NCBI GenBank assembly: GCA_039815375.1
Contig: JBCBZJ010000017.1
Coordinates: 1-64,000, forward strand
Direction: 5' to 3'
Origin: Verrucomicrobiota bacterium
GTDB taxonomy: Bacteria > Verrucomicrobiota > Verrucomicrobiia > Opitutales > Coraliomargaritaceae
Length of the DNA stretch: 64,000 nucleotides
Under the pieces are notes generated by a model that saw only the letters and a list, made by a program, of their open reading frames with translations, ran no database searches and was not told where the DNA came from. Positions 3,016-38,742 of this stretch are shown piece by piece. Position numbers and translations under genes: made by a program. Positions within the stretch are counted from its first letter, which is position 1. Each line of letters starts with the position of its first letter.

Positions 3016-3798
3016 TTAAAGGACGAGAGACACCGGGCAGTGATCCGACCCCGTGACTTCGCTGAGCAGATTAATCTCTTTCGCTTTGTCCTTTAACCTT
3101 TCAGAAATGCAAAAGTAATCGATACGCCAACCTACATTTCTTTTCCGAGCCCCTGCCCGGTAGGACCACCAAGTGTAACACCCGGATTTATCCGGGTAGA
3201 AATATCGGAAGCAATCAACAAACCCTGATTCCAATATCGTATCAAAACGGCTGCGTTCTTCATCTGTGAATCCGGCATTTTTTCGATTTGTTCCAGGGTT
3301 TGCCAGGTCAATTTCTTTGTGAGCTACATTGATGTCGCCACAGAAAATCACCGGTTTCACTTGGTCAAGACGCATGACGTAATCAAGGAAGTCGACGTCC
3401 CATTCCTCAGTGCGGTAGGTCAATCGGCGGGGTTTTTTTGTTTCGTCGTGATTTTGGGAATTTGGTGTGTAAACATTCACTAAATAATAGTTCGGAAACT
3501 CGGCTGTGATGACCCGGCCTTCCTTGTCGTGTTTCTCAATGTTGATCCCGTTCTTGACCGATATGGGCTCGACTCTACTCAGAATCGCGGTGCCGGAGTA
3601 GCCCTTCTTTTCCGCGCAGTTCCAGTAAAGGTAGGGGAAGTCTTCAAACTGGAAATCTCCGGTCAGGTCAGAGGAGATTTTTGTTTCTTGTAGGCAGACA
3701 ACATCCGCACCGCATCCTGCCAGAAAATCGTTGAAACCTTTTTTCAGCACAGCTCGAAGGCCATTAACATTCCAGGAAATTAAAGTTGTCCGGCTCAT
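3016..3798 (-). CDS. xth: Exodeoxyribonuclease III / AP endonuclease
   Basis: [35 protein letters not shown] and GSDHCP motifs. Confidence 0.95.
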
Positions 3799-5550
3799 AG
3801 CAGACAGATTCGCCAAACCGCGGCCTATGGCAAAGGCTATTTAATGAAAATTGGCTGTAGAGTTTCTTGCCAACGACAAGCAACAGAAGGCATGAATTGG
3901 AAAGCTTCCTGTCCTAAGGGCTTTTTTTTATTTTGTGATATCTCTTCAGCGGAAACTGTATTCGGATCTTCAAATTTACTAAAGGTTGCAAAGGATTTCA
4001 GATAATCAACGAATCTGGAAAGCAGTTGCTCAAAATTCTTAGCTTTCGCTGAAAAGAGATTCGGGCGCCGGGCCGACTTAGGTTGCCTGATTCTACTTGG
4101 GCCCTGCTTTGAATTTCAACTTCCTGCAAATAGACAAATTTTCTACGTAAGGGGTAGAGTTCGTTGATCGGTTCGTCTGGATGTATCAATTTCCATTGTT
4201 TAAAAACTACATGATTTTTGATGCCGTGTTCTACTGGGTAGTGAAGTGAAAGATCTTAGGATGCTTTAGTGCAAAATACGACCTTCGATACTTTTTTAAA
4301 ACATCACTTGGATCATCGAAAATGGTATTTCCTCGGAGGCTCCGACTTTCCTTTTGAGGTCTGAGCAGTTGATTGATCTGCATTAAATAAGTTCTCTCAT
4401 TTACCCTTAATGAAGGCTATACCTCAGTTGTATGAAAGATAAATTAAAAAAGTCATAAAGTATTGATTTTGAATATCTTAAAACTAATTAAATGGTTAAA
4501 AATTTAGATATTCGAGGCTTTTATTTTATTCAATTAACCCTTGTTGCAGCTACTAAAGGTTTAGGATTTCCTGTTTTGTGTTTTCCGGAGACGTTTTTCT
4601 AGCCTGTTGAGAATGTTCTGGGTCAGCTGAATCATGACCAAAAGATCGTTCTGATTGATGCCCGTAATACTGTCACACTTGTGATTGGATTGGCCAGGAT
4701 TTCGGGCCCGATCAACTCTCGTAGAGTCCCTTTCGATGCTTTACGGGCTTAAATCGATAATCGCACTGAATGCATAAAAGTTACCGTGATCTCGCCCTGG
4801 TTGGAACGGCTCAGACTGTAATCTTTCATCTTATTTTTGTGCCATAGGTATCCAGGGTGCTAACTTGTTGCCATTGGATTAGTAACTCTTAACGGAATTC
4901 AAGTTGCTCTATATCAGTGCATTGCAGAGAAATTGATCGGTCCATCTAATCGGTTTCGACGACTAAAATGCCACCTAGTCAAAGGCAATCCAGCTATCTG
5001 GCCTACTGATGAGGCTGTTTCTTTCGCTCCAATCGGAATTCTTAGATATCTAAATATTTTCTTCTGTATCGCTCTCTGCCGGCAGCGGATCGCCGCATTG
5101 TCGGTATTTTGGCGATACATTCAGCGTTTGTTAAGAAGCCGGCTGAGGTTAGTTCGGAGCAGGAGTTTAAAACCTTGGAGGGAAAGCTCCTAGGCGAAAA
5201 AATTGGGCGATCATCTGGTAAGGCTGATGCAAGTTGTCAGGCGTTTCTAGAAGATTTTCTAATGACATAACTATTAAGACTTATACTGCATTTTATGCAA
5301 ATAATGTAGGTAGTATAGTGTATTAATAGTTATGGGGTAATGGGCCTATATGAGAGACAACAACCTTGTATTTAGGTGCCTGGAGGATACCTAAAGGCAC
5401 ATGTATAAACACCTTTTAAGCCGCTTGTTTCCTACAATGCTAATATTACCTAATTTATATTACGATACTTAAAAATGTTACCTATCTACACTGCTTTTTT
5501 CGAAAAAAATAAGACATCTAAAAAAATTTTATCACACAACCACCAACACA

Positions 5551-6048
5551 ATGCTTATGCAAAAACAGTTCAGTCTTTTAGCAGGCCTTAGCGTTCTAAT
5601 CGCTTCGGTCTTAACTGCGCAGGAGGCAAAACGCCAACCGCTCTCCCTTGAAGTTCGGGCGGAGCTCGAGACGGTTCGCATCCAACCGGATGGGCGGCGC
5701 CTCGTTGAGCTGGTCAGTGCCGAGAAGGTGCTGCCAGGTGAGACGATCGTCTATACCATAACCTACACGAATCCGGGCGAAATTCCGGCCGAGAATGTAG
5801 TTATCAATAATCCTGTGCCCGAAGAGATGATGTATCTCGACGGCAGTGCAGTCGGGGAGGGAACACAGATCGATTTTTCAGTCGATGGTGAGACCTATGG
5901 AAAATCTGCAGATCTTGTCGTCTCACTTTCGGACGGCACTACCAGACCCGCGGAGCCGGGCGAATACCGAGCCGTGCGCTGGACCCTCGTCGAGGATATT
6001 CCGGCTAACAGCAGCGGGTTCGTTCGCTACAGGGCAATCCTCAGATAG
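5551..6048 (+). CDS. Secreted stand-alone DUF11-type Ig-like protein
   Basis: Signal peptide; PGETIVYTITYTN...NVVINNPVP DUF11-like motif. Confidence 0.8.
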   Translation: MLMQKQFSLLAGLSVLIASVLTAQEAKRQPLSLEVRAELETVRIQPDGRRLVELVSAEKVLPGETIVYTITYTNPGEIPAENVVINNPVPEEMMYLDGSAVGEGTQIDFSVDGETYGKSADLVVSLSDGTTRPAEPGEYRAVRWTLVEDIPANSSGFVRYRAILR

Positions 6049-6107
6049 TCGCTCCGCGCTCTATCATTTTTCAAGTCAAAGATTAACTAAACCAAACCAA
6101 AAACATA

Positions 6108-7208
6108 ATGAAAATGCACAATACACGAATAAGCCTCGGCTTATATCTCGCAGGTTTGATTGGCCTTCTGGCCTTCACACCTGCTGTTACATTCGCGCAG
6201 GACACTGCCGCGGATACCGACGTAAGCAACACCGCCACGGTCTCTTATGAGTTCGATGGTGCACCGCAGCCAGACGAAACCGGCGAAGAGTCCTTCGAAG
6301 TGGATGCACGTGTCCAACCCGTCGTCACACTCGATAATGCACCGGAAATCACCATTGGTGAAGATGATACCGTTACTGAGTTTACAGTTACCAATAGTGG
6401 TAACCAGACTCAGGACTTTATTATTGATCTGGTTCAGCCGACCGACGATGACTTCGACCTCGAGAATGTTGTTGTCTATCGAGATGGTGGAGACGGCGTC
6501 TTCGACCCAGACGATCCTTTAGGTGGTGACGACATTGTGATCGTTATCAGCACTCAGGACGAAACGCAGGTTGGCCGAATTGATGATATCGCGGCAGGTG
6601 ACGACGTTACGGTCTGGGTAGTTGGCGATGTGCCGGAAACAGGTGTCGATCCCGATGATTCCGTTGATCTTGATTTGATCGCAACTGCTTTCAAGTCAGA
6701 CGGCAGTGGTATCGAAGTAGCGACTTCTGCCGGTTCAGCCGATATCGACACAGTGGATACCGTTTTTGCTGATGCTGACGGTCCTGCTACAGTCGACGAT
6801 GCAACCGATGGTCAAGCTTCCGACGATGCGACCCTCACAACTCCTGATGATACAATCAGTGTAACCAAGGGAGCCGAAGTTCGCAACTCTGACGGAAGCG
6901 GTGGCGCAGACCAGTTCTATCTTCCCGGTGAGCGCGTTCGTTACACCATTACTCTGGATTACAGCGGCCTCGACGAAGAGGATGCGAGTAACATCGTGAT
7001 GGCCGACCCGATTCCAGCTAACACGACCTACGTCGCCGGTTCGATTACCTTGAATACCGTAGCCCAGACCGATGCTGATGATGATCCGGGCACAGACTTC
7101 TCTGACTTCGGAGCCACAACTGCTGACACAGTCACTGTAGTAATTCAGGGCACGCGTAATAGCAGTAGCTCGGATGACGTCATTACTTTCGACGTCACCA
7201 TTGATTAA
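6108..7208 (+). CDS. Secreted acidic DUF11-type protein, putative major filament subunit
   Basis: Signal peptide ending VTFA; N-terminal SNTATVSY; C-terminal VTK...PGERVRYTI...ADPIP domain; Asp-rich loops. Confidence 0.8.
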   Translation: MKMHNTRISLGLYLAGLIGLLAFTPAVTFAQDTAADTDVSNTATVSYEFDGAPQPDETGEESFEVDARVQPVVTLDNAPEITIGEDDTVTEFTVTNSGNQTQDFIIDLVQPTDDDFDLENVVVYRDGGDGVFDPDDPLGGDDIVIVISTQDETQVGRIDDIAAGDDVTVWVVGDVPETGVDPDDSVDLDLIATAFKSDGSGIEVATSAGSADIDTVDTVFADADGPATVDDATDGQASDDATLTTPDDTISVTKGAEVRNSDGSGGADQFYLPGERVRYTITLDYSGLDEEDASNIVMADPIPANTTYVAGSITLNTVAQTDADDDPGTDFSDFGATTADTVTVVIQGTRNSSSSDDVITFDVTID

Positions 7209-7210
7209 AC

Positions 7211-7280
7211 GAAAAGGCCGTCCATAGGCTTTTTCGAACATATTGTGCGTAAAGCACCGTCCGCAGCGCGGGCGGTGCTT
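7211..7280 (+). terminator. Two consecutive hairpins (terminator or mRNA stabiliser) after the 366-aa gene
   Basis: gaaaaggcc/ggctttttc (7211-7235) and a 13-bp stem aagcaccgtccgc/gcgggcggtgctt (7252-7280). Confidence 0.6.
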
Positions 7281-7328
7281 CTTCGCGCACATGGACGTGT
7301 AAGTTCCCGCATTTGCGGGTGCTTGCGA

Positions 7329-10300
7329 ATGGCTGTGCCTACTCTATTGCCGAGATCTCGGTGGTGGGGTAGGCGCAGCCTCCCGGTCCAAATGGTTGCC
7401 GTTTTGGCAGCTATTTCTCCAACCCTTTCCAAGGCTCAAACTCAAGTCGGCACTGAAGTGCTGAATGTGGTTCGTGTGGACTACACGAATGTCTTTGGCG
7501 TTGAAAAGGATCCTGTGACAGCGTCCGCATTATTTACCGTCGATCCGGTCCGGACACCTTCCACAATTATATTCTATAACTATGCGCCCACCGTTAGCGG
7601 CGCGGAGTCGATCAACATCGACACCATAAACTATCAAGACGGTCCAAATGGACCGCTCACGCCATTGGCTCCGCCCAATGATTTCGGTAATCCGATTGAT
7701 TTGAATGTGCCGGTTCCGTTGCTTCCAACGGGGCTCTATCATGCGGGCCAACCAATTTTCCTTACCCTTGAAGATATCGATCAGAATCTTCAACCGGACA
7801 TACGCGAGACTGTGCTGGTCACTCTAACTGTTTCAGCCACAGGTGACGAAGAGGTCTTGCGCTTTGTCGAAACCGGTCCGAACACCGGTCTCTTTGCGGG
7901 CTACATTCCATCCGCGAGTGGTTCGACTACGATTTTCGACGGAGTGCTCACACTAGAGCCCGAAGCTGAAATTGTTGCAAGCTACATTGATGTGATCGAT
8001 GGCACGGATGTTTCTAGCGCGGCTGCCTTGATCGACCCATTCGGCATTGTCTTTGACAGCCAGACCGGTCTGCCGGTTAACGGGGCGATCGTCACAATCA
8101 TCAACAACGCGACTGGTTTACCTGCCACAGTGATTGGTGATGACGGTTTCAGCTTGTATCCATCGGTTGTCGTTACCGGCTCGACCGTTCAGGACAGTAG
8201 TGGCACGAGTTATCCAATGCCGGATGGTGGCTTTCGCTTCCCGCTTCTTGCTGCTGGGGACTACCGCCTTGAAGTGGAGCCGCCCGCGGGTTACACTTTC
8301 GCAAGTACGGTAGACGATGTCGACCTGCAAAGCCTGCCCGGTGCTCCATTTGAACTAGTTGTTGGTTCGCGCGGCGAAGTGTTTACGCTGCTTCCCGGGC
8401 CGGCTCTCGAAATCGACGTGCCGATTGATCCGGCCCCGGACCTCGATCCGGGAGTGGGTCTCTTCCTGCAGAAGTCTGCGTTCGATGCGAGTGTCGCGAT
8501 CGGTGACTTCCTGCGCTATGACCTCGTTCTTGAGAACACTGGGATTGATGACGCCACAAACATTGTTCTTGAGGATACATTGCCCCACGGTTTCCGCTAT
8601 CAATCCGGTTCGGCTTATCTGGGCAACGTCAAGTTACCGGATCCGGATATCGCTGAAAACGGTCGCGACCTTACCTTTAACGGACTTGGATTCGTTCCCG
8701 CCGGTGAATCTGTTGAACTGCGCTATGTCGTTGAAGTTACATCTGCCACGCGTTTGGGTGATGCAACGAACAGGGCAATCTTCTTTGGCTCAGGGAATGC
8801 CGAGTCCAATGAAGCACGTGCTACCGTTACGGTTGTCGATGACCTGCGTGGAGATAACATTTTGATTGGCCGTGTCATGATCCGTCCGATGGATCGGGAT
8901 CTGTGGACGAAGGATGATCAAACCATCGGACTGCCGGGTCTCGAAGGTGCCCGTCTTTACCTCGAAGATGGTTCTTATGTCATCACCGACGATGAAGGGC
9001 GGTTCCACTTCGAGGGAGTCAGCCCGGGAGTGCACGTGGTTCAGCTCGATGGATTGAGTGTGCCCGAGAAATATGAGATCATCGGTGTTGAGAACACGCG
9101 TTTCGCTGGTCGGGATTATTCGCAGTTCGTCGACTTGCAGGCGGGCGTAATGTGGCGGACCGACTTCTTTGTTGTTGAACGTGCACCACGTCAGGGTGTG
9201 CTCAGCGCGGAAGTCTGTGAATTGGTTGAGGATGGTTTTGCCGGTGCGGTCGTTTCCTTGAAGAGTGATCTGCTCGAGGTTTCGCGTCTGCGAGCGATCT
9301 TTATGTTGCCTGAAGGCGTCGAAGTAGTCGGGAAGGAGGCCCGGTTTGGCGAACGAAGTATAGCGATGGATATTCGTGGCAAGACGGTCACAGTTGACCT
9401 AGGTGCATTTGCAGCCGGTGAGTCCGGTAAGCTTCGTGTGCCGTTTAGCCATGATGCACCTGCTGATATAAATGTTTTGCTCTTTGCCGATGCAAACGGT
9501 GAAAAGAACATTCGATCCGATAAGCTCACCTTCCGTCTCGATGGAGCTGCAGACTGCAGCGCCGAAGTTCGAATCGAACGAGAAGTTGAGTGGGGTGAAG
9601 TCGAGCCAGTCAATACACCGATCAAAATTTCGGAAGATTCCAGACTGTCACACGATGCGGACTGGTTGGACAAAGTAGGTTCTTCATTCGAATGGGTCGA
9701 ACCAGCCTTGGATTACGTGCCTACGATTCCTGTCTTGAGTATGGGTATAAAGTACCCGACTGGTCATCGTATTGAGCTCTATAATGATGGTGAACTGGTT
9801 AGCGGTCTGTTCCTTGAAGGCTCAATTACGGGAACAAAACGAGAGACGACGCTAAGGCGCTGGACTGGTCTGAACATCGAGCTCGGCTCGAATCCGTTTA
9901 CAGCGGTTATTATTGATTCGGACGGCAACGAAGTCGAGCGCATCGAGCGGAACTTCCACTACTCCGGCCCGGCAGTGAGGGCCGAGTATGTTAAGGAGTC
10001 TTCTATTCTGGTAGCCGACGGTCGAACGAATCCGGCCATTGCTCTGCGTCTGACCGATGCTGAGGGTAAACCTGTCCGGCCGGGTATGCGTGGAAGCTTC
10101 CGCGTCGATCCACCTTATGAGGCGCTATCTTTTGAAGAGCAGCGCATCGACCGTTTCTTACGAGTTGGAGAGCGGGAGCGCCAGGTTGAATATGAGGTCG
10201 GCGAGAATGGTGTCGCGCTTCTATACCTCGAGCCGACTGCGCAGTCCGGTGAAGTTACAGTTCGACTCGACCTGAATCAACGTGAGTTTGATTTCCAAGC

Positions 10301-12794
10301 TTGGCTCGAAGCAGCACCGCGTGACTGGATTCTGGTCGGCCTCGCAACAGGCACGGTCGGATACAATGATATCTCGTCGAGGATCGACGACTTTGAGGAC
10401 GGTGAAATCGAAGAAAATTATTATGAGGACGGCCGTGTGGCCTTCTTCGCCAAAGGTCGCGTCAAGGGCAAGTGGTTACTGACTGCTGCTTACGATAGCG
10501 ATAAGAAGAGCGAGCAGCGTGGACAGGAAAGCCTGCATCAGATCATCGATCCTGACACTTATTATACGCTCTATGGCGATGAGACCGACCAAGGCTATGA
10601 AGCATCGAGTGCAGAAAAGCTCTACGTCAAACTCGAGCGCGAGAAATTCTATGCCATGTTCGGTGATTTTGATACTGGTCTGACAGTTACCGAACTCTCC
10701 CGATATAGTCGTAGCCTAACCGGATTCAAGACTGAGTATCATGGAGATAATTTCACCTTCAACGGCTTTGTCAGTGAGACCGATTTCACCTATGTCCGTG
10801 ACGAAATTCAGGGTGACGGCACATCCGGTCTATACCGACTTTCCAGAAACAGTATTGTGATCAATTCTGAAAAAATCCGCATACAGACCCGAGATCGATT
10901 CCAGAGCGAAGTCATAATTGAAGAACGGGAGCTGAGCCGCCATCTCGACTACAACATCAACTACGATGATAGCACGATCTACTTCAAGAGCCCGATCTTC
11001 AGTCGTGACGAGAATCTGAATCCGATCTTCATTATTGCAGAGTATGAGGTCGAGGGTGATGGAGAATCCTATAACTATGGCGGCCGTGCCTCGGTTAAGA
11101 CAGAGGATGATCGCGTGGAACTCGGTGTGACTTATGTGCACGAGGAGGATTCCGAAACAGAAGGTGATCTTGTCGGTGCAGATCTGCATGTAAAAATCAA
11201 CGAGCAGCACGAGTTCCGTGCCGAGATCGCAAGAACTGAGGTCGACGCAGTCAGTTCAGATGCTTTCGATGCTGAAGGTAACGCTTACCTGGTCGAGCTG
11301 ACACACCGTTCGGTAGTGGCAGAGGGTTCCATATACTATCGCCAACAGGATTCCGAATTCGGACTGGGTCAGCAAAACGTTAGCGAAACTGGAACGCGCA
11401 AGTATGGTTTCCGCGGCAGCTACTTAATTGATCGTGAGATCAATGCGGTGGCAGAGGTTTATCATGAGGAGCTACTCGGCACCGGCGATACGCGAAATCA
11501 CTTTGGTGCCTATCTCGAACGTCGATTCGACGATACTGCCTACCGTCTCGGTTACATCTGGACCGAGGACGATATCGATGGCGATGATTCCTATGCTTCA
11601 AGCCAGTTGCATGCCGGTGTATCACGTAACCTTTTCTCGGACAAATTCATCTTCCGTTTGGATCACTACCAGTCACTTGGAGACGATGGTGAGAGCAGTG
11701 ATTATCCGACACGCTCGATTCTTGGTGTGGATTATTTCCTCAATGAGAAAGTCCGCTTCTTCACCGAATACCAACTCGCCTTTGGTGAAGAAACCGACAG
11801 TGAAAATGCCCGGGCTGGCATGGCCTTGCTTCCATGGACGGGGGCAAACATCGACACTTCGGTTCAACAGGAGATCAGCGAGGACGGTGGCCGCACTTAT
11901 GCGAACTTCGGCCTTGGCCAGATACTGCAGCTCAATGACAACTGGAGTATCGATGGCGGTTTCGATAGTGGTCGAACCTTCAACGAATCAAGTTCGGGTG
12001 TTAGCGGCGAACCGCTTAACTTTAATCCGAATACTCCATCCGCCTCAGGTTCGAGCGAGGACTTCACTGCACTCTCACTTGGGGCGACCTACCGAGAGAA
12101 GACATGGAGTTGGAGTGGCCGTGCCGAACAGCGCTACGCGGAAATCGATGATCGCTGGAGCCTCTACACCGGTATCATTGGAGAGATTAGCGATGGTCTG
12201 CACATGGCTTTGCAAGGCTCGCTTTTTGAGACGCAGGCTGAAAACGGCAATGATTCTACGAACGCCGACGTTCGTTATTCCATTGCCTATCGTCCACTCG
12301 ATTCAGAGTGGATATGGTTAAACAAACTCGAGTTGCTCTACGATTCGATAGGTGGTAATAATGCTTTTGAGAACTTCAGGATCGTTAACCGTGGTGATGT
12401 CAACTATCTGCCGCATGAAGATCTACAGATTGCCTTCCAATATGGCCACAAGTACGTCTTCACCACTATTGAAGGTGATGAGTTTGACGGCTTCAGCGAC
12501 TTTTACGGAATCGAAGCTCGTTATGATATCCATGAGCGCGTCGACCTTGGTATTCGCGGCAGCGTGCGTCACAGCTGGAATAGCCATGTATTTGATTTCT
12601 CATTCGGTCCTTCGATTGGTGTGAATCCGGTTGATAATATGTGGATCAGTCTCGGCTACAATGTAACCGGTTTCACCGATGAAGATTTCTCCCGAAGCGA
12701 CTACACAGCACAAGGTCCTTACATTCAGTTCCGTGTTAAATTCGACCAAGAGACCTTCAAGGATGTCGCCAGCCTGCTTAAACACGACATGTAA
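7329..12794 (+). CDS. Very large DUF11-containing outer-membrane protein with predicted C-terminal beta-barrel
   Basis: Ig-like and DUF11 domains followed by a long region of amphipathic beta-strands ending ...QGPYIQFRVKF; true start probably 7329 or 7392 because 7245 lies in the hairpin region. Confidence 0.8.
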   Translation: MAVPTLLPRSRWWGRRSLPVQMVAVLAAISPTLSKAQTQVGTEVLNVVRVDYTNVFGVEKDPVTASALFTVDPVRTPSTIIFYNYAPTVSGAESINIDTINYQDGPNGPLTPLAPPNDFGNPIDLNVPVPLLPTGLYHAGQPIFLTLEDIDQNLQPDIRETVLVTLTVSATGDEEVLRFVETGPNTGLFAGYIPSASGSTTIFDGVLTLEPEAEIVASYIDVIDGTDVSSAAALIDPFGIVFDSQTGLPVNGAIVTIINNATGLPATVIGDDGFSLYPSVVVTGSTVQDSSGTSYPMPDGGFRFPLLAAGDYRLEVEPPAGYTFASTVDDVDLQSLPGAPFELVVGSRGEVFTLLPGPALEIDVPIDPAPDLDPGVGLFLQKSAFDASVAIGDFLRYDLVLENTGIDDATNIVLEDTLPHGFRYQSGSAYLGNVKLPDPDIAENGRDLTFNGLGFVPAGESVELRYVVEVTSATRLGDATNRAIFFGSGNAESNEARATVTVVDDLRGDNILIGRVMIRPMDRDLWTKDDQTIGLPGLEGARLYLEDGSYVITDDEGRFHFEGVSPGVHVVQLDGLSVPEKYEIIGVENTRFAGRDYSQFVDLQAGVMWRTDFFVVERAPRQGVLSAEVCELVEDGFAGAVVSLKSDLLEVSRLRAIFMLPEGVEVVGKEARFGERSIAMDIRGKTVTVDLGAFAAGESGKLRVPFSHDAPADINVLLFADANGEKNIRSDKLTFRLDGAADCSAEVRIEREVEWGEVEPVNTPIKISEDSRLSHDADWLDKVGSSFEWVEPALDYVPTIPVLSMGIKYPTGHRIELYNDGELVSGLFLEGSITGTKRETTLRRWTGLNIELGSNPFTAVIIDSDGNEVERIERNFHYSGPAVRAEYVKESSILVADGRTNPAIALRLTDAEGKPVRPGMRGSFRVDPPYEALSFEEQRIDRFLRVGERERQVEYEVGENGVALLYLEPTAQSGEVTVRLDLNQREFDFQAWLEAAPRDWILVGLATGTVGYNDISSRIDDFEDGEIEENYYEDGRVAFFAKGRVKGKWLLTAAYDSDKKSEQRGQESLHQIIDPDTYYTLYGDETDQGYEASSAEKLYVKLEREKFYAMFGDFDTGLTVTELSRYSRSLTGFKTEYHGDNFTFNGFVSETDFTYVRDEIQGDGTSGLYRLSRNSIVINSEKIRIQTRDRFQSEVIIEERELSRHLDYNINYDDSTIYFKSPIFSRDENLNPIFIIAEYEVEGDGESYNYGGRASVKTEDDRVELGVTYVHEEDSETEGDLVGADLHVKINEQHEFRAEIARTEVDAVSSDAFDAEGNAYLVELTHRSVVAEGSIYYRQQDSEFGLGQQNVSETGTRKYGFRGSYLIDREINAVAEVYHEELLGTGDTRNHFGAYLERRFDDTAYRLGYIWTEDDIDGDDSYASSQLHAGVSRNLFSDKFIFRLDHYQSLGDDGESSDYPTRSILGVDYFLNEKVRFFTEYQLAFGEETDSENARAGMALLPWTGANIDTSVQQEISEDGGRTYANFGLGQILQLNDNWSIDGGFDSGRTFNESSSGVSGEPLNFNPNTPSASGSSEDFTALSLGATYREKTWSWSGRAEQRYAEIDDRWSLYTGIIGEISDGLHMALQGSLFETQAENGNDSTNADVRYSIAYRPLDSEWIWLNKLELLYDSIGGNNAFENFRIVNRGDVNYLPHEDLQIAFQYGHKYVFTTIEGDEFDGFSDFYGIEARYDIHERVDLGIRGSVRHSWNSHVFDFSFGPSIGVNPVDNMWISLGYNVTGFTDEDFSRSDYTAQGPYIQFRVKFDQETFKDVASLLKHDM

Positions 12795-12809
12795 GCGCTT
12801 TTATTTTCA

Positions 12810-14102
12810 ATGATTTACACATTATCAAACTATTCAATTTGTCGCTTGGCTTGCGGCTTTCGGAAAGTCTTTTTGTGGCTCTCTTACAGTAAGCTTGTAA
12901 TTTTATTTCTGTCTTCAAATGCCTGCTTACACGCCCTCAATATTACGAGTTCTGCGAATAGCATTTCTATCACATCCATCACTTTCGATGATAACGGATC
13001 AACGGTTGTTCAGTCTTCTCCATCTGGTGCTGACGACAACGATCCGGAGCCGGTCCTGCTGGATCTCATGAACCTCCAGGGCGGAACCGTGCTTGATGAA
13101 TTCAACACCGGAGTAGTCACCGCGATTGCCCTTAACTTTACTCCTTCTCCTGGATTTGATGCATACCTCGATAACCAAACTATCAGTAGCACAGATACTG
13201 ATTTTGCAGAAGCTGTAAGGGTAATTTATTCTGACCGAAATCTCCGCAATTACGTAAATAAGAACTCAAGTGCGAACGCCAATAATCCTAACGGCGACTA
13301 CGACATACTCTATGAGTTTGCGTTGTCCAATGATGACTATATTATAGTAGCTGAACGAAGTGGAAATAGCGCAATTTCCATTCAGGCAATCGACGAAAAT
13401 GCCATTGTGATTCCGGGTTCTGAAACGCTCAACTTCGTTGGCGGCGGGAACGCGCCTTTTACTTGGGACACGGGCTATCGGTCGGATCAGGATCCGAACA
13501 GCAATCAGACACTTGAACTCGCCGTAGTCGATGTTAGACTCTTCAATACGAATGATAACATTTTTGGACTCAGGGTAATTAATAACTCCGGTGCAGATAA
13601 CAAAATTCTCGTCGCTTCTGAGGATACCTTTGCCAACAACATACCTAATCCCGGTGCCACTCTGTTTCCACTCTTTACTGTTCTGAAGTTTGCTCAGGTT
13701 GACGATGGTAACTCGGATCCGGGTGACGATTTTTACGTGCCGGGCGCAGAGATTATTTACCGTGTAGTCGTAACGAATGGAGGGCCGGGCATCCCCGATT
13801 CAGGGACCTTTGTGTTCTCCGATGATCTTCCTGATGAGGTCGACCTTTTCGTCGGTGACTTTGCTGGAGGAGGTGGCGGCCCGATCGACTTCGACGACGG
13901 TTCCGAGCCCAGCAATTTGGGCTTTAGTCCGGGCAGCGTGATCTACCGAAATGTAGGTGGGACAGCCATTTCACCTGGAACGTCAGGATACAACGAACTG
14001 ATTCGTTCTTTTGAGATTCCGTTCACCGGTTCCTTTGAGCCTTGGGATGGGAGCGGTCCACAGCCTAATTTCGAGATCGAATATCGGGTTCGGCTTAAGT
14101 AG
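12810..14102 (+). CDS. Secreted protein with an N-terminal beta-rich domain and a C-terminal DUF11-type domain (putative tip)
   Basis: Hydrophobic N-terminal segment; TVLK...VPGAEIIYRVVVTN...SDDLP domain ending IEYRVRLK. Confidence 0.7.
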   Translation: MIYTLSNYSICRLACGFRKVFLWLSYSKLVILFLSSNACLHALNITSSANSISITSITFDDNGSTVVQSSPSGADDNDPEPVLLDLMNLQGGTVLDEFNTGVVTAIALNFTPSPGFDAYLDNQTISSTDTDFAEAVRVIYSDRNLRNYVNKNSSANANNPNGDYDILYEFALSNDDYIIVAERSGNSAISIQAIDENAIVIPGSETLNFVGGGNAPFTWDTGYRSDQDPNSNQTLELAVVDVRLFNTNDNIFGLRVINNSGADNKILVASEDTFANNIPNPGATLFPLFTVLKFAQVDDGNSDPGDDFYVPGAEIIYRVVVTNGGPGIPDSGTFVFSDDLPDEVDLFVGDFAGGGGGPIDFDDGSEPSNLGFSPGSVIYRNVGGTAISPGTSGYNELIRSFEIPFTGSFEPWDGSGPQPNFEIEYRVRLK

Positions 14103-14131: not shown

Positions 14132-15202
14132 CTATTTGTAAAAGCCTCCTCCAATAAGTTTATCGCCGTCATAGATAGCTAGCACCTGGCCTGAGGCGAG
14201 TGCGCGCTGAGGCTCCTTGAAGGCAACATTTGCAGTGTCAGGTCCTGTAGGTGTGTAGGTAATCATCTGTGAAGGGTCCCGATAGCGCGGCTTTGCGAGC
14301 AGTTGGCAGGTCGATCTTACAGGATGGTTCGTAAAGCTCAGCCCATACAGTTCAACCTCTGATGTGTAGAGGTCGGGAGAGTCGGTTCGGTCAAATGCGA
14401 CGATCAGCTCATTGCGCTCCATGTCGAGCCGAGTGACGACGTAGGCTTCGTTATTGGTATTGGATGGCACCCCGATCCCACGGCGTTGCCCCGTGGTGTA
14501 GCGGTGTAGGCCCCGATGTTGACCGAGAACTTTGCCCTCGCTGTTTACGATGTCCCCCGGCTTGTCCTCAATGTAGTATTCAAGGAAGCGGCTGATGTTC
14601 ATGTCGCCGAGGAAGCAGATACCCTGGCTATCTTTCTTCGTGGCGTTGGGTAACTTGTGTTTTTGCGCGAGTTCACGGACCTGCGGTTTTCCGAGTTCAC
14701 CGACGGGGAAACGCGCACCCGCAATCTGTTCCTGACGCAGAAGGGCGAGAAAGTAGGTCTGGTCTTTGTTCTTATCCAAGCCTTCATAGAGGTCGAAGCT
14801 GCCGTCCTCCTTTTTGAGCGAGCGCACGTAGTGGCCGGTAGCGATGCCATCGAATCCATTGTCCAGAGCATACTTTTCGAAGATGCCGAACTTCATCTCG
14901 CGGTTACACATCATGTCGGGGTTGGGTGTGATGCCGCGCTTGTATCCATCAACCAAATATGAAACCACACGTTCGCGGTATTCGTTGACCAGATTGACGA
15001 TATCATAGTCGATACCGAGATGTGTCGCGACTGCGCGTGAGTCTTCAATGTCCTGCTGAGCCGGGCAATCAGCCAGTGGCATTTCCTCGTTCATCCAGGT
15101 GCGTATGTAAGCACCTGATACATCATAGCCCTGCTCTTTTAAAAGAAGGGCAGCCACGGAGCTGTCGACTCCGCCTGAAAGGGCGACGAGGATTTTCTGC
15201 AT
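14132..15202 (-). CDS. mnmA: tRNA-specific 2-thiouridylase
   Basis: [42 protein letters not shown]. Confidence 0.97.
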
Positions 15203-15611: not shown

Positions 15612-17084
15612 ATGACACAGACCATTGAATCGATACCCGAATATATTGATGATATCCCCAATATCGCCGGCTCTGAAGCGTTGATCGAAAGCACGATTAA
15701 AAATGCTGCGGCCAAGTCATCTTATGCGGGCGACAACTCCATCAACTTTGAAAACATAAAGGCCGCCTTCGCCATTGCCTTGCACCAGCATCAGCCGCTC
15801 ATTCCAGGGCGCGGCGACATCACTCAGACTCCACTCATTAGCAATCTCAAGGACATGATGGATCACCCGAACGAGGGGGATAATCACAATGCCTCCGTCT
15901 TCAAGTGGTGCTACGAGCGCATGGGCGACTTCGTTCCTGAACTCATTTCTCAAGGTAAGCAGCCGCGTTGCATGCTCGAATACTCCGGCACGCTCTTTCA
16001 CGGTCTCCGTGCGATGGGCTGTGGCGACGTGCTAGATAAGCTCAGGGCTATAACGGTAAACCCCGACTACCGCCATTGTATCGAGTGGTTGGGCATGCCT
16101 TGGGGGCACGCAGTCGCACCATCCACGCCAGTGCAGGACTACCGTCTTCATGTTAAGGCGTTCCAACATCACTTTGCAGCCATCTTCGGCCTTGAAGCAC
16201 TCGAACGTGTTCGCGGTTTCTCGCCGTCTGAAATGGCGCTTCCAAATCACCCGGACATCGCCTACGAATACATTAAGACTCTCGTTGACTGTGGCTACGA
16301 ATGGCTGCTCGTTCAGGAGCATACGGTAGAGCAACCGGAAAATGGCCATAGCCCGGCACGTCCTCATTTGCCGAACCGTCTTGTCGTGCGTAACTCCAAG
16401 GGCGACGAAGTCAGCATTATCGCGATCGTTAAGACGCAGGGAAGTGATACTAAGCTCGTCGCCCAGATGCAGCCCTACTACGAGGCCAAGAGCCTCGACC
16501 GTTGGGAGCTTGCCGGCAAAATGGTGCCGCCACTCGTGACCCAGATCGCTGATGGCGAAAACGGTGGCGTGATGATGAACGAATTCCCGCCGATGTTTAA
16601 TCAGGTCATGGCTGAGTGTTCTCACACCGACGTGCCTGCTATGAATGTCTCGGAGTATCTCGACAAGCTCTTCGCCATGGGCATTCATGTGGAGGATTTC
16701 GATGTCATCCAACCCGTTCACCAGAAAAAAATATGGGATTGCGTCGAGCCCGGCTGTGGTGCCGAGCAGCTCGAGGCTGCGATTGAAGGGATCAAAAAGG
16801 AAGACCACCAGTTTCACATGGATGGTGGAAGCTGGACAGACGATATCTCCTGGGTCGACGGATACGACAATGTCCTGGGGCCCATGGAAGAAGCCAGCCA
16901 TGCTTTCTATAAGAAGGTGATCGAGCCCGGTATGCCAACCGATGAGACACGCTACCGCAATGCGCTCTTTAACCTGATGAGCTCGCAGACTTCCTGCTAT
17001 CGCTACTGGGGTCAAGGTGCGTGGACCGACTTTGGCCGCGAGATCTGCCGCCGGGTGGGGGCCATCGTCGAAAACGATTACTAG
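15612..17084 (+). CDS. Glycoside hydrolase family 57 protein
   Basis: HQHQP, YSGTL, GFSPSEM, ADGENGG and GGSWT motifs. Confidence 0.8.
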   Translation: MTQTIESIPEYIDDIPNIAGSEALIESTIKNAAAKSSYAGDNSINFENIKAAFAIALHQHQPLIPGRGDITQTPLISNLKDMMDHPNEGDNHNASVFKWCYERMGDFVPELISQGKQPRCMLEYSGTLFHGLRAMGCGDVLDKLRAITVNPDYRHCIEWLGMPWGHAVAPSTPVQDYRLHVKAFQHHFAAIFGLEALERVRGFSPSEMALPNHPDIAYEYIKTLVDCGYEWLLVQEHTVEQPENGHSPARPHLPNRLVVRNSKGDEVSIIAIVKTQGSDTKLVAQMQPYYEAKSLDRWELAGKMVPPLVTQIADGENGGVMMNEFPPMFNQVMAECSHTDVPAMNVSEYLDKLFAMGIHVEDFDVIQPVHQKKIWDCVEPGCGAEQLEAAIEGIKKEDHQFHMDGGSWTDDISWVDGYDNVLGPMEEASHAFYKKVIEPGMPTDETRYRNALFNLMSSQTSCYRYWGQGAWTDFGREICRRVGAIVENDY

Positions 17085-17221
17085 ATCCACGAAATTCGGA
17101 ACCACCTCTGGCGGCGTTACGCAGCGGAACCGGCGCAGTCAAGCACCTCAGTGCGCTCCTTTGACAAATCCGTTCCAAGCCTTGCCAGAGTCACTTCTGA
17201 GTCTCGTGAATAAGTGATTTC

Positions 17222-17254
17222 AGTCCCTGCTCGTGAGAGTAGGGACTTTTCTTT
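17222..17254 (+). terminator. Intrinsic terminator
   Basis: agtccctgctc-gtga-gagtagggact followed by tttcttt. Confidence 0.7.
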
Positions 17255-17311
17255 GTGAACTTCGTGCGCTTCGTGGTTTAAAAATACATCTGCTTGGTTC
17301 TAATTGTGCGT

Positions 17312-18508
17312 ATGTCCGCGATTCATCACGCTCTTGTCCTGAACCTGCACCAGCCGCCGAACAATCTCGACGATCTACTCGCGGAACAGGAATGGGAGGT
17401 CAAGGAAGTGCTCTTTGCACTCGACCGCATGCCTCGCGCATGCTGGGACTACGAGGATATTGCCCGGGTGCATCTTTCCATGTCCGGATCGCTGCTCGAG
17501 ACTTTGGGTAGCCCGGACTTTCAGGAAAAGATGTATGGTGCAGTCAAAGTGGGTGATATGCTTTGGCACCTTCAGAATGAAAAGATCTTCAATATTCTGG
17601 GAACCGGTTACTACCATCCGGTTCTCCCGCTTACTCCCGAGGCCGACTGGGATGCCCACATCAAACGTTGGCAGGGCATAGGTAAACACCTCTTCTGGCG
17701 CGAACAGTTCCAAGGATTCTGGCCGCCCGAGATGGGTTTCTGTATGGAGATGATCCCGCACCTCGTGAAGCACGGCTACCGCTACGTGTTGGTCGACGAT
17801 ATCTATATTGAATCACTTGAGGGCGAAATGAGCTGGCAGGAGCTGCGCTACCGTCCGCACATTGCGGAGTATGGAGGCGAAGAAATCATAGTTGTCGTGC
17901 GTGACCGTGAGCTCTCCAATGCCCAGCTCTCCGGCATGGACCCCGGTTGGTTTATTCATGAGCTGGAAGAGCGCACCAAGTGGTGCGACTTCGAGCCCCT
18001 TGTCACTACCTGCTCGGATGGTGACAACGGCGGTTGGTTTCGTAATCACGATAAATTGGCGAACTTCTGGCATGTTTTCTACCAATCCATGCTCGAAAAA
18101 GTCCGGGCCGGGCAAACCCGCATAAAACCGACCTTCATTCACGATTACCTCGACCAATTCGGTGTGCACGGTCGCGTCAAAGTTCATACCGGCGCATGGA
18201 ACACGGAGGACCACTACGGTGACGACTTCACTCAATGGACTGGCACGCAGGAACAGAAAGATGCGCATGCGCGAGTGAGAGAGGTTAGCGCCGCCTTCCA
18301 TATACTTAAGGTTAAAATCGACGAGCTGCCGGATGGTCCCGAATCCATGCAGGCTGAGCATCTAATCAATGAAGCGCATTGGCGACTTTTGCGCGCCGAG
18401 ACTTCCTGCAACTTTTATTGGGCTCAGGCTTGGGTGCCTAAGGTCCACGAGGACCTTAATATGTGCGAGCATCATCTCTACCACGCTGATCGGGTGGTCA
18501 CGTCATAG
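17312..18508 (+). CDS. Glycoside hydrolase family 57 protein
   Basis: NLHQP, SGSLLE, YYHPVLP, GFWPPEM and SDGDNGG motifs. Confidence 0.85.
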   Translation: MSAIHHALVLNLHQPPNNLDDLLAEQEWEVKEVLFALDRMPRACWDYEDIARVHLSMSGSLLETLGSPDFQEKMYGAVKVGDMLWHLQNEKIFNILGTGYYHPVLPLTPEADWDAHIKRWQGIGKHLFWREQFQGFWPPEMGFCMEMIPHLVKHGYRYVLVDDIYIESLEGEMSWQELRYRPHIAEYGGEEIIVVVRDRELSNAQLSGMDPGWFIHELEERTKWCDFEPLVTTCSDGDNGGWFRNHDKLANFWHVFYQSMLEKVRAGQTRIKPTFIHDYLDQFGVHGRVKVHTGAWNTEDHYGDDFTQWTGTQEQKDAHARVREVSAAFHILKVKIDELPDGPESMQAEHLINEAHWRLLRAETSCNFYWAQAWVPKVHEDLNMCEHHLYHADRVVTS

Positions 18509-18859: not shown

Positions 18860-19111
18860 ATGCGCACAACAGTTACAATCGATGCGGATACAGAGCATCT
18901 CTTGAAAGAGGAGGCCGAGCGCACAGGCCATTCGTTCAAAGTCGTCTTGAATGAGGCGATTCGTGCGGCACTTGCCAAACCCCAGAGAGAGCGTATCCGC
19001 GTGGAACCTCTATTCGATACGCCTTTTCCTGCTGAGTTTACTGGTATTAGCATGAATCACCTCGCTGATATACTCGATGACGAAGAGACGTTACGTGAGT
19101 TGTCGCGATGA
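18860..19111 (+). CDS. vapB: VapB-type ribbon-helix-helix antitoxin
   Basis: MRTTVTID...SFKVVLNEAIR; ATGA overlap with a PIN toxin gene. Confidence 0.85.
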   Translation: MRTTVTIDADTEHLLKEEAERTGHSFKVVLNEAIRAALAKPQRERIRVEPLFDTPFPAEFTGISMNHLADILDDEETLRELSR

Positions 19112-19536
19112 TTCTTCCGGATATCAATTTGCTCCTCTATGCCTATAATAAACAGGCACCTCAGTATGAGCGCGCCAGTATGTGGTGGGAAGAAGTCCTG
19201 AATGGCCGCGAATTGGTAGGCATGCCTCATGAGGTTTCGCTCGGATTCTTGCGTATCGCAACGAATCCACGAATGGGTCAGCTTGCTATCCCGTTTGAAG
19301 CGGCGCGTCAGGTCGTTACCACATGGCTTGCGGCTCCTAATGTCAGGGTGCTGCTTCCCCGAACAGACCACGCAGTGAAAGTGCTCGAGCTCATGCAGCG
19401 TGCTGCTGGCAGCGGACAACTCGCTTCAGATGCTTCTCTGGCGGTCTATGCGATCGAGAATCGAGCGACGCTTTGCTCGAACGATTCAGATTTTGTGCGC
19501 TTCGCGGGGCTGGATTGGAAGAATCCGCTGCTTTAG
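19108..19536 (+). CDS. vapC: VapC PIN-domain ribonuclease toxin
   Basis: MILPDINLLLYA, FLRIATN, DASLA and SNDSDF PIN motifs. Confidence 0.92.
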   Translation: MILPDINLLLYAYNKQAPQYERASMWWEEVLNGRELVGMPHEVSLGFLRIATNPRMGQLAIPFEAARQVVTTWLAAPNVRVLLPRTDHAVKVLELMQRAAGSGQLASDASLAVYAIENRATLCSNDSDFVRFAGLDWKNPLL

Positions 19537-35892: not shown

Positions 35893-37746
<1,854 letters not shown>

Positions 37747-37893
37747 TTTTTCTGTATTTTATTGTGTTCTGGGTCGTGGTTATCATGTGAATAGAAATAT
37801 GTTCCACACACAAGTCTAAGAGCTTGTATCTTTCTAAAGGAGTTGCCTGGGCCACAAGTTTTTACGCATGGAGCGATGGCCAGTTCTGCTGGC

Positions 37894-38742
37894 TTATTTT
37901 CGGCCAGCGTGAACTCTCAAAAGCTTTTTTCCGAAAACGGGGTAGCGTGCAAGAATACCACTGAAAGGCCCACTTTCCATGATGAAACAGGAAGTCTCTG
38001 TCAGGGCCGTTACAGTTGCAGAGCAGGGCTTCTTTGTCAGTAAAGAGCCCTCGCCAAAGCAAGCACCCGGGCCGAGCTCTGCGATCTGGTTACCGCTTTT
38101 GTTGATTCCGACAACTCCCTCTTCAATGAGGAAGAAAGTGGTGCCTTCGGCACCTTCACAGATCAGCACCTCATCCTTGGCATAGGTCTTCCTGATCAAA
38201 ATTTGTGCTAGATCATTGATAAAGTCGCTGCTTGCACCAGCTAGAAAGGGAGCATTCTCAAGCAAATTACGTTCGATCGAGTTTTTGATCCCTTCAGCGC
38301 GCCGTTGGGAGTGAAGTTCCTTCAAGCGGAAACGGACCTTAAGATACTTTTCTGTGAGGCCGGAAAAGGAGTCACGCTTGAGTTGAAACAAAGTGGCCTC
38401 TTCAGTCGCTGTGATCGTTGCCCCGCGAACCTCATCGGTCAGCAGGGCACCTTCACCGAAACATCCACCGACACCAAGATCGGCAATATCCTCACCCTTA
38501 CTGCTGACACGAACGGAACCCTTTACGACGAGAAAAAAGCTGTCGCCGATGTCCCCTTCCTTGAAAATTACTTCATGTTTACCGTAATCAACCGACTCAA
38601 TCGCCTCAGCTAAATCCGAGATGAGCTTGTAGTCCGCGCCTTCCAGAAAGGGAACCCTGGACAGAAGAACAGTTTCCACCTGTTCTTCGATGGCTTTCCT
38701 ACGCTTCGAATCACGAGCTGACCCAATGAGCTTCTTGAACAT
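37894..38742 (-). CDS. Tandem cyclic-nucleotide-binding domain protein
   Basis: Two CNB repeats: FGEGALL...RGATI and FGEGSLL...CSATV. Confidence 0.9.
   Translation of the reverse strand: MFKKLIGSARDSKRRKAIEEQVETVLLSRVPFLEGADYKLISDLAEAIESVDYGKHEVIFKEGDIGDSFFLVVKGSVRVSSKGEDIADLGVGGCFGEGALLTDEVRGATITATEEATLFQLKRDSFSGLTEKYLKVRFRLKELHSQRRAEGIKNSIERNLLENAPFLAGASSDFINDLAQILIRKTYAKDEVLICEGAEGTTFFLIEEGVVGINKSGNQIAELGPGACFGEGSLLTKKPCSATVTALTETSCFIMESGPFSGILARYPVFGKKLLRVHAGRK

Follow-up and report, generated by a model that had tools for sequence, protein, structure and literature searches.

What is built from a protein domain that a bacterium encodes in pieces? The question is raised by a 64,000-nucleotide stretch of a Verrucomicrobiota bacterium of the family Coraliomargaritaceae (GenBank assembly GCA_039815375.1, contig JBCBZJ010000017.1, positions 1 to 64,000; hereafter the window). 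Here, four open reading frames (ORFs) on the + strand (5551-6048, 6108-7208, 7245-12794 and 12810-14102) follow one another in the same direction, with intergenic gaps of 15-59 bases. They encode a protein of 165 amino acids (aa; A), a predicted major pilin of 366 aa (B), a large barrel protein of 1849 aa (C) and a protein of 430 aa (D). We propose that together they form a surface fibre with tip, rod and anchor, whose subunits donate two strands to each other, are locked by intermolecular Lys-Asn bonds and grow through the barrel, while the 165-aa protein delays locking. To this reading we assign a probability of roughly 0.6. That the subunits pair in trans and become covalently bonded we hold to be highly probable; the main doubt is whether a long pilus or a short stalk results.

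A predicted pilin that ends two strands early

The domain in question is CLIPPER (DUF11, PF01345), a CnaA-like domain of fibrillar adhesins in which Lys lies on the first strand, Asp some 33 residues later and Asn close to the end, and whose crystal structure (PDB 9IFR) contains the isopeptide triad K715-D748-N806 (PMC12617251). An intact copy lies in the large protein (8463-8837; PF01345, 43.6 bits), where K410, D444 and N509 are spaced by +34/+99, against +33/+91 in the solved CLIPPER, and are predicted to form an intramolecular bond. Among 119 barrel relatives, 11 of which were left out since they do not cover the N-terminal region, the three residues are kept in 107/108, 108/108 and 106/108 proteins; the family profile of this internal domain matches 9IFR itself weakly (E 0.04). 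Nowhere else in the operon do Lys, Asp and Asn share a single continuous domain, the three terminal domains ending before the Asn. PF01345 exceeds the Pfam cut-off in the 165-aa and large proteins and TIGR01451 exceeds its cut-off in the pilin; the 430-aa protein, at 17.5 bits, falls short of the latter cut-off of 24. An earlier note on this DNA, made from the letters alone, had quoted the intact DUF11 domain, the chain ends ITFDVTID, IEYRVRLK and VRYRAILR at their stop codons and two donor-like N-terminal motifs, all of which are present where it placed them.

The pilin gene (6108-7208, +) encodes a signal peptide (6108-6197), a donor hairpin (residues 31-67; 6198-6308), a middle immunoglobulin (Ig)-like domain (6309-6845) and a truncated acceptor (residues 249-366; 6852-7205) that is two strands short. 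Residues 41, 254 and 300 are Asn, Lys and Asp, encoded at 6228-6230, 6867-6869 and 7005-7007. We took the best 120 of 189 relatives, of which 119 were aligned with the window's own record excluded; the window's own proteins were likewise removed before all other counts, except for the tail-profile test (all 120 used) and the tallies of Asp by protein type given below, and one partial-match row (P0118) was kept out of alignment A1 and of the coevolution analysis. K254 and D300 are invariant (119/119 each), N41 is found in 116/119, and the three occur together in 116/119. The claim of the earlier note that one protein holds both donor and acceptor is thus borne out, and the loss of conservation that would have spoken against it is not seen. 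By analogy with CLIPPER, K254, N41 and D300 would lie close together in space.

Likewise, the reading that the terminal domains stop two strands early holds. The chain ends at the D366 column in 115/119 pilin relatives. In hhalign, the match between the acceptor profile and the large protein's intact DUF11 domain (probability 97.9, E 3e-13) covers profile positions 13-93 of 126 and halts at the acceptor C-terminus, short of the bond-forming Asn. Not one of 120 B-type C-terminal matches to the intact-domain profile extends beyond position 95, while PF01345 itself matches 74 of the 119 aligned pilins at E<=0.01. The PDB copy searched contains no close relative of the pilin: a sequence search of the PDB with the pilin returned no meaningful match, nor did one with a single CLIPPER domain, and the best of the Foldseek matches listed for the pilin model reaches a query TM-score (TMq) of 0.33 with generic multi-Ig chains. 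A search of the pilin against plasmids gave no match.

Does the N-terminal hairpin supply the missing strands? The strongest evidence comes from natural fusions. A 602-aa protein of locus L022 runs donor-middle-acceptor-donor-middle-acceptor, with its internal donor (29 bits) directly behind the last strand of the acceptor, and the same junction is visible by eye in proteins of 932 and 1063 aa in loci L023 and L026. In these fusions, an acceptor and the donor that follows it amount to a complete CLIPPER domain, so that a row of linked pilins would equal a tandem fibrillar adhesin in separate pieces. In addition, a profile of the intact-domain tail finds its best match within the first 90 residues in 85/120 pilins, compared with 147/600 shuffled sequences. 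Whether pairing occurs in cis or in trans we decide on gene layout and fusions, and the layout recurs elsewhere. The barrel gene is present in all 19 loci chosen by a pilin match, and of 20 loci with pilin and barrel, 18 have a 165-aa type gene, and in 9 an acceptor-only gene lies next to them; since many of the loci are related to one another, the counts are not independent. Excluded were L025 (a duplicate of L001), L028 (an unrelated DUF11 gene) and L005-L008 (copies of the window). A survey of this kind, suggested in the earlier note, favours a conserved system.

Predicted barrel, helper and tip

The large outer-membrane protein (7245-12794, +; start at 7245, 7329 or 7392) comprises, in order, a donor hairpin, an Ig-like arm, the intact CLIPPER domain, a CarboxypepD_reg domain, an invasin-like Ig domain and a predicted plugged barrel. 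Its length of 1849 aa is counted from the first GTG, and the start is uncertain, a database record beginning at residue 50 (nucleotide 7392). The hairpin (7446-7544), also seen in the other loci, carries N74 (7464-7466), kept in 107/108 barrel relatives, and is predicted to serve as terminator and covalent anchor. An AlphaFold2 (AF2) model of residues 900-1849 (50 alignment rows; mean predicted local distance difference test score, pLDDT, 81.6; predicted TM-score, pTM, 0.79) shows an Ig-like domain followed by a barrel (10320-12749) of about 38 strands, counted by hand from the DSSP assignment, with a beta-sandwich plug (approximately 10782-11057) entering after about the seventh strand. In a structural comparison with VIA-align, the top match is the usher pore of PapC (Z 14.1, root-mean-square deviation (rmsd) 6.6, 314 residues aligned). 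MtrB comes second, and FimD scores Z 11.8 (model 129-659 vs chain 139-652). For the Ig domain, invasin is matched at Z 8.1 and rmsd 2.6. In Foldseek, the matches listed are generic barrels (TMq <=0.22), and the usher family has no match to the barrel protein. Judged by the model, the layout of the barrel is usher-like and its size is not. The earlier note's reading of this protein as a donor-only base or usher fits this model.

An OmpA-like motif occurs in 81/119 barrel relatives. Since it sits between arm and barrel in 79/119, the sequences suggest that the arm is periplasmic; in the window's own large protein, PF00691 has no match. The plug resembles a neck protein of phage DT57C (8hqo_R; Z 7.9, rmsd 2.0, 70 aligned, 26% identity). 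Barrel relatives are numerous (2,178 among 8,000 scored candidates), and we rejected the label of TonB receptor under which some are filed, as the plug lies within the barrel sequence. In locus L003 (11166-16194), the barrel gene is split into two overlapping ORFs (757 and 1125 aa), by a frameshift or an assembly error.

The 165-aa protein (5551-6048, +) is secreted, judging by a signal peptide recognised by eye, and consists of a truncated CLIPPER/DUF11 domain (PF01345, 33 bits; TIGR01451, 42 bits). The earlier note had listed it among the proteins that lack the last two strands. This holds, but the protein is not an ordinary acceptor, since the bond-forming Lys is replaced by V35 and the catalytic Asp by N87, and both are lacking throughout the family: the Asp is present in 0/19 A-type proteins of the loci, 14 of which carry Asn, and the Lys, at the position equivalent to K254, is present in 0/18 complete ones, by eye. 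Six of six further A-type relatives have Asn at the Asp site. The Asp is present in 32/32 pilin-type proteins, 2/2 long fused pilins and 12/12 D-type proteins. On this pattern of residues, the 165-aa protein is a conserved dead acceptor, and it likely acts as a non-covalent donor-binding helper, either a chaperone or a reversible cap.

The 430-aa protein (12810-14102, +) joins an N-terminal payload to a terminal acceptor (13671-14099; K293, D338), and no donor hairpin is seen in it. No Pfam family matches the payload encoded in the window; payloads of D-type proteins in other loci vary on a constant acceptor and include ice-binding, P_proprotein and GEVED domains, much as tip adhesins do. This agrees with the acceptor-only tip that had been proposed for it. 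The ice-binding case is a tip-type protein of locus L018 (606-1817, -) with PF11999 (204 bits) on the acceptor module. Acceptor-only genes also occur at a distance from two operons that have no adjacent tip gene (L024, 10742-12139; L027, 9983-12013) and are possibly orphan tips. An identity of the 430-aa protein as the exosortase family XDP2 was rejected (24 vs 75 bits).

How might these parts work together? We infer that the operon proteins are exported to the periplasm by Sec, where the dead acceptor would reversibly hold donor hairpins and so prevent premature locking, a chaperone role that would be the reverse of that of PapD, which donates a strand. The acceptor-only 430-aa protein would enter first, as a tip bearing the adhesive payload. 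The two-strand hairpin of each 366-aa subunit would then fill the unfinished CLIPPER domain of the subunit before it, the lock being a predicted self-forming Lys254-Asn41 bond with Asp300 as catalyst. Further pilins would be added basally and travel through the barrel until the barrel protein's own hairpin (Asn74), on its probably periplasmic arm, filled the last acceptor; growth would end at this point, and the fibre would be tied covalently to its pore. Neither sortase nor protease nor ATPase would be needed.

Known fibres and competing explanations

Covalently linked pili are a feature of sortase-bearing monoderms. The accessible part of a 2026 review lists none for diderms, and CLIPPER chemistry has been published as intramolecular only, the main text of the structural paper not using the word 'donor' (PMC12617251). 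Here, three genes stop before the Asn hairpin and two begin with one, hence the bond is predicted to link chains. The view of the earlier note that no named pathway follows such a logic was nevertheless too strong, since two published fibres share it. In BsaA of Clostridium perfringens, a member of the TasA family, an N-terminal donor Asn bonds the Lys of a neighbour, an acid in the acceptor catalyses the reaction without a sortase, and mutants of N35, K74 or E56 lose oligomers (PMC11580942). The triad of donor Asn, acceptor Lys and acceptor acid known from TasA/BsaA fibres is present here. However, BsaA has a TasA/camelysin fold, SipW processing, an N-E-K triad and a monoderm host without an outer-membrane barrel (PMC11580942), whereas the present system has a CLIPPER fold, an Asp catalyst, a two-strand donor and a two-domain subunit; no TasA/camelysin Pfam family matches any of the 119 pilin-alignment members. 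The archaeal thread Saci_0406 is a filament assembled head to tail by donor strands, whose subunits are joined by isopeptide bonds and whose cap is donor-only, features that recur in our model, but its Asn57 bonds the N-terminal amine of subunit n+2, and it is barrel-less with a type-1-pilin-like fold (PMC9715654). Saci_0406 is absent from the 50 Foldseek matches listed for the pilin model, and given the invariant Lys, a side-chain bond is more probable in the present system than a bond to an N-terminal amine.

Chaperone-usher pili (Fim, Pap) combine an N-terminal donor, an acceptor-only tip and a plugged outer-membrane barrel, as is predicted for the present system, yet with non-covalent single-strand links, a 24-strand usher, a PapD chaperone and a separate terminator (PMC13721041). 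In contrast, the predicted barrel here has about 38 strands, a donor is fused to the pore protein, the lock is predicted to be covalent, and neither PF00577 nor PF00345 is involved: Usher (PF00577), PapD (PF00345) and Sortase (PF04203) have 0 matches in the window's own genome, which is 99.9% complete, a control for PF00577 being positive in E. coli. Sortase pili differ as well, in that the present proteins end at a beta-strand without an LPxTG sorting signal and the genome has no sortase match. The Elr (WxL) pilus of Enterococcus faecalis resembles the locus in keeping tip, rod, terminator and helper in one operon and a variable payload on a constant module, but has a WxL fold, a strand-donating membrane chaperone and sortase anchoring and is confined to Bacillota (bioRxiv 10.64898/2026.10.17.759780). 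Type V pili of Bacteroidota start from a lipoprotein precursor and release the donor strand by proteolysis (PMC9715654), while the pilin here contains no Cys and thus no lipobox. Operons for tip, rod and terminator have been published for chaperone-usher pili, tafi and Elr, and a cyanobacterial paper, in its accessible part, uses only a DUF11 signal peptide. In the literature searched, which lay outside subscription-only papers, we found no account of CLIPPER subunits that are split and combined with this barrel.

Taken together, this is a real and conserved system, apparently undescribed, for a predicted diderm fibre, with known parts in a new arrangement. Whether it deserves to be set apart as a class of diderm pili, namely long covalent split-CLIPPER filaments on a 38-stranded usher-like pore with terminator and anchor built in, served by an inverse chaperone, bearing exchangeable tips and spread over several phyla, we rate at even odds. 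What the locus predicts for diderm bacteria is a covalent fibre that forms without an enzyme; it would also add one of the largest outer-membrane barrels predicted so far, and thousands of proteins labelled 'DUF11', 'OmpA family' or 'TonB-dependent receptor' would gain a role. Protein engineering would gain isopeptide pairs of tag-and-catcher type that are split by nature and, in polymer form, a natural tag-and-catcher polymer.

Several results count against the fibre. Profile-profile comparison of the donor hairpin with the intact-domain tail is weak (probability 9%) and out of register. Mean-field coevolution, at an effective number of sequences (Meff) of 115, speaks for neither side: 6 of the 60 highest-ranking pairs join donor and acceptor, which matches the background of 9.8%, with A43-I302 ranking ninth. 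PapC leads the second-ranked barrel, MtrB (Z 12.9), by only 1.2 Z, and within the stretches fetched, the 165-aa gene was not found in 2/20 loci and an adjacent tip gene in 11/20. Finally, AF2 models the pilin monomer confidently, donor included (donor pLDDT 91-98, pTM 0.80), which may mean that the donor folds back into its own acceptor. The pilin would then be a circularly permuted monomer closed by an intramolecular bond, and closed forms have indeed been described for TafA (PMC11821415). We regard this as improbable nonetheless, because the acceptor-only and donor-only proteins of the operon could not complete themselves, and because the fusions place the donor behind its acceptor, leading into the next middle domain. 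Moreover, in the AF2 model DSSP assigns a strand that runs almost without a break from the donor to the middle domain, so that self-closing would call for a tight U-turn. A closed monomer could also be a passing state on the way to the fibre.

Alternatively, the same lock might hold together a short fixed stalk of tip, one or two pilins and barrel, in effect a fibrillar adhesin in pieces. Two different pilin paralogues in 13/20 loci, a further point against a long fibre, would suit such a stalk, as would fused pilins of 600-1060 aa in three loci, an anchor whose donor comes from the same operon and could cap immediately, and barrel relatives that adjoin a giant SdrD_B-type protein in Devosia. 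Still, the window's single pilin has both donor and acceptor, nothing in the sequence limits its repetition, and the conservation of a dead acceptor makes more sense where locking has to be delayed; we therefore consider the stalk unlikely. Strand exchange could also underlie an envelope lattice or a periplasmic tether, or remain non-covalent. The OmpA-like motif of the barrel relatives, as a peptidoglycan-binding one, would fit a tether, and the anammox S-layer model gives a weak match, whose 26 bits against a cut-off of 1400 led us to reject an S-layer assignment. However, one donor and one acceptor per subunit make a line rather than a sheet, a payload like the ice-binding domain has to be exposed on the outside, and near-invariant Lys, Asp and Asn argue for a bond, all of which renders this group of explanations very doubtful.

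Distribution and genomic surroundings

How widespread is the predicted fibre? Of 401 genomes sampled around G201 (itself included), 13 carry pilin relatives, as do 3/201 genomes of the window's phylum and 3/101 of its family, whereas 8 other genomes of its genus yielded none; as so few sampled genomes carry them, the system is patchy. A search of genome contigs with a single protein as query gave 4 loci, and other matches bear the names Desulfosudis, Nitrospirota, Gammaproteobacteria, Asticcacaulis, cyanobacteria and Coraliomargarita. Among cultured environmental bacteria, Novosphingobium sp. THN1 carries the barrel gene and Coraliomargarita akajimensis a pilin relative at 45%. On a Devosia neptuniae plasmid (L030, 1-11658), a stand-alone barrel relative of 1,118 aa, annotated as a TonB-dependent receptor, adjoins an SdrD_B-like protein of >2,600 aa, and the barrel family may thus also serve giant adhesins. 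A plasmid of Acinetobacter haemolyticus (L029, 4534-16899) carries DUF11 genes, a barrel, a separate OmpA gene and another DUF11 gene, with a transposase adjoining; the upstream genes of this locus are short and possibly fragmented.

In the window, the operon is flanked by a gene at 3016-3816 and one at 14132-15202, which from their motifs we take to be xth-like (exonuclease III-like) and mnmA-like, respectively, and there is no signal peptidase ORF between the two. Scans for promoters and terminators gave nothing above chance level, including for promoters in 4800-5550. The 1.7 kb of 3817-5550 contain no ORF of 100 aa, are AT-rich in part and likely form a regulatory region 5′ of the operon. 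Ribosomal-protein genes lie near the operon as well. Further upstream (73-2753, -), three ORFs with prepilin-like N-termini, two of which match PF07963 (N_methyl), have a GC content of 39-46% and make up a type IV minor pilin or pseudopilin cluster; its 533-aa ORF is presumably PilX-like. Downstream, a tandem pair of GH57-family genes (15612-18508) is followed by an ORF (19108-19536) that we assume, by motif, to be PIN-domain-like. Outside the operon, the same genome encodes another DUF11-like protein of 497 aa (G000:C24, approximately 36550-38040, corresponding to L028, 8550-10043).

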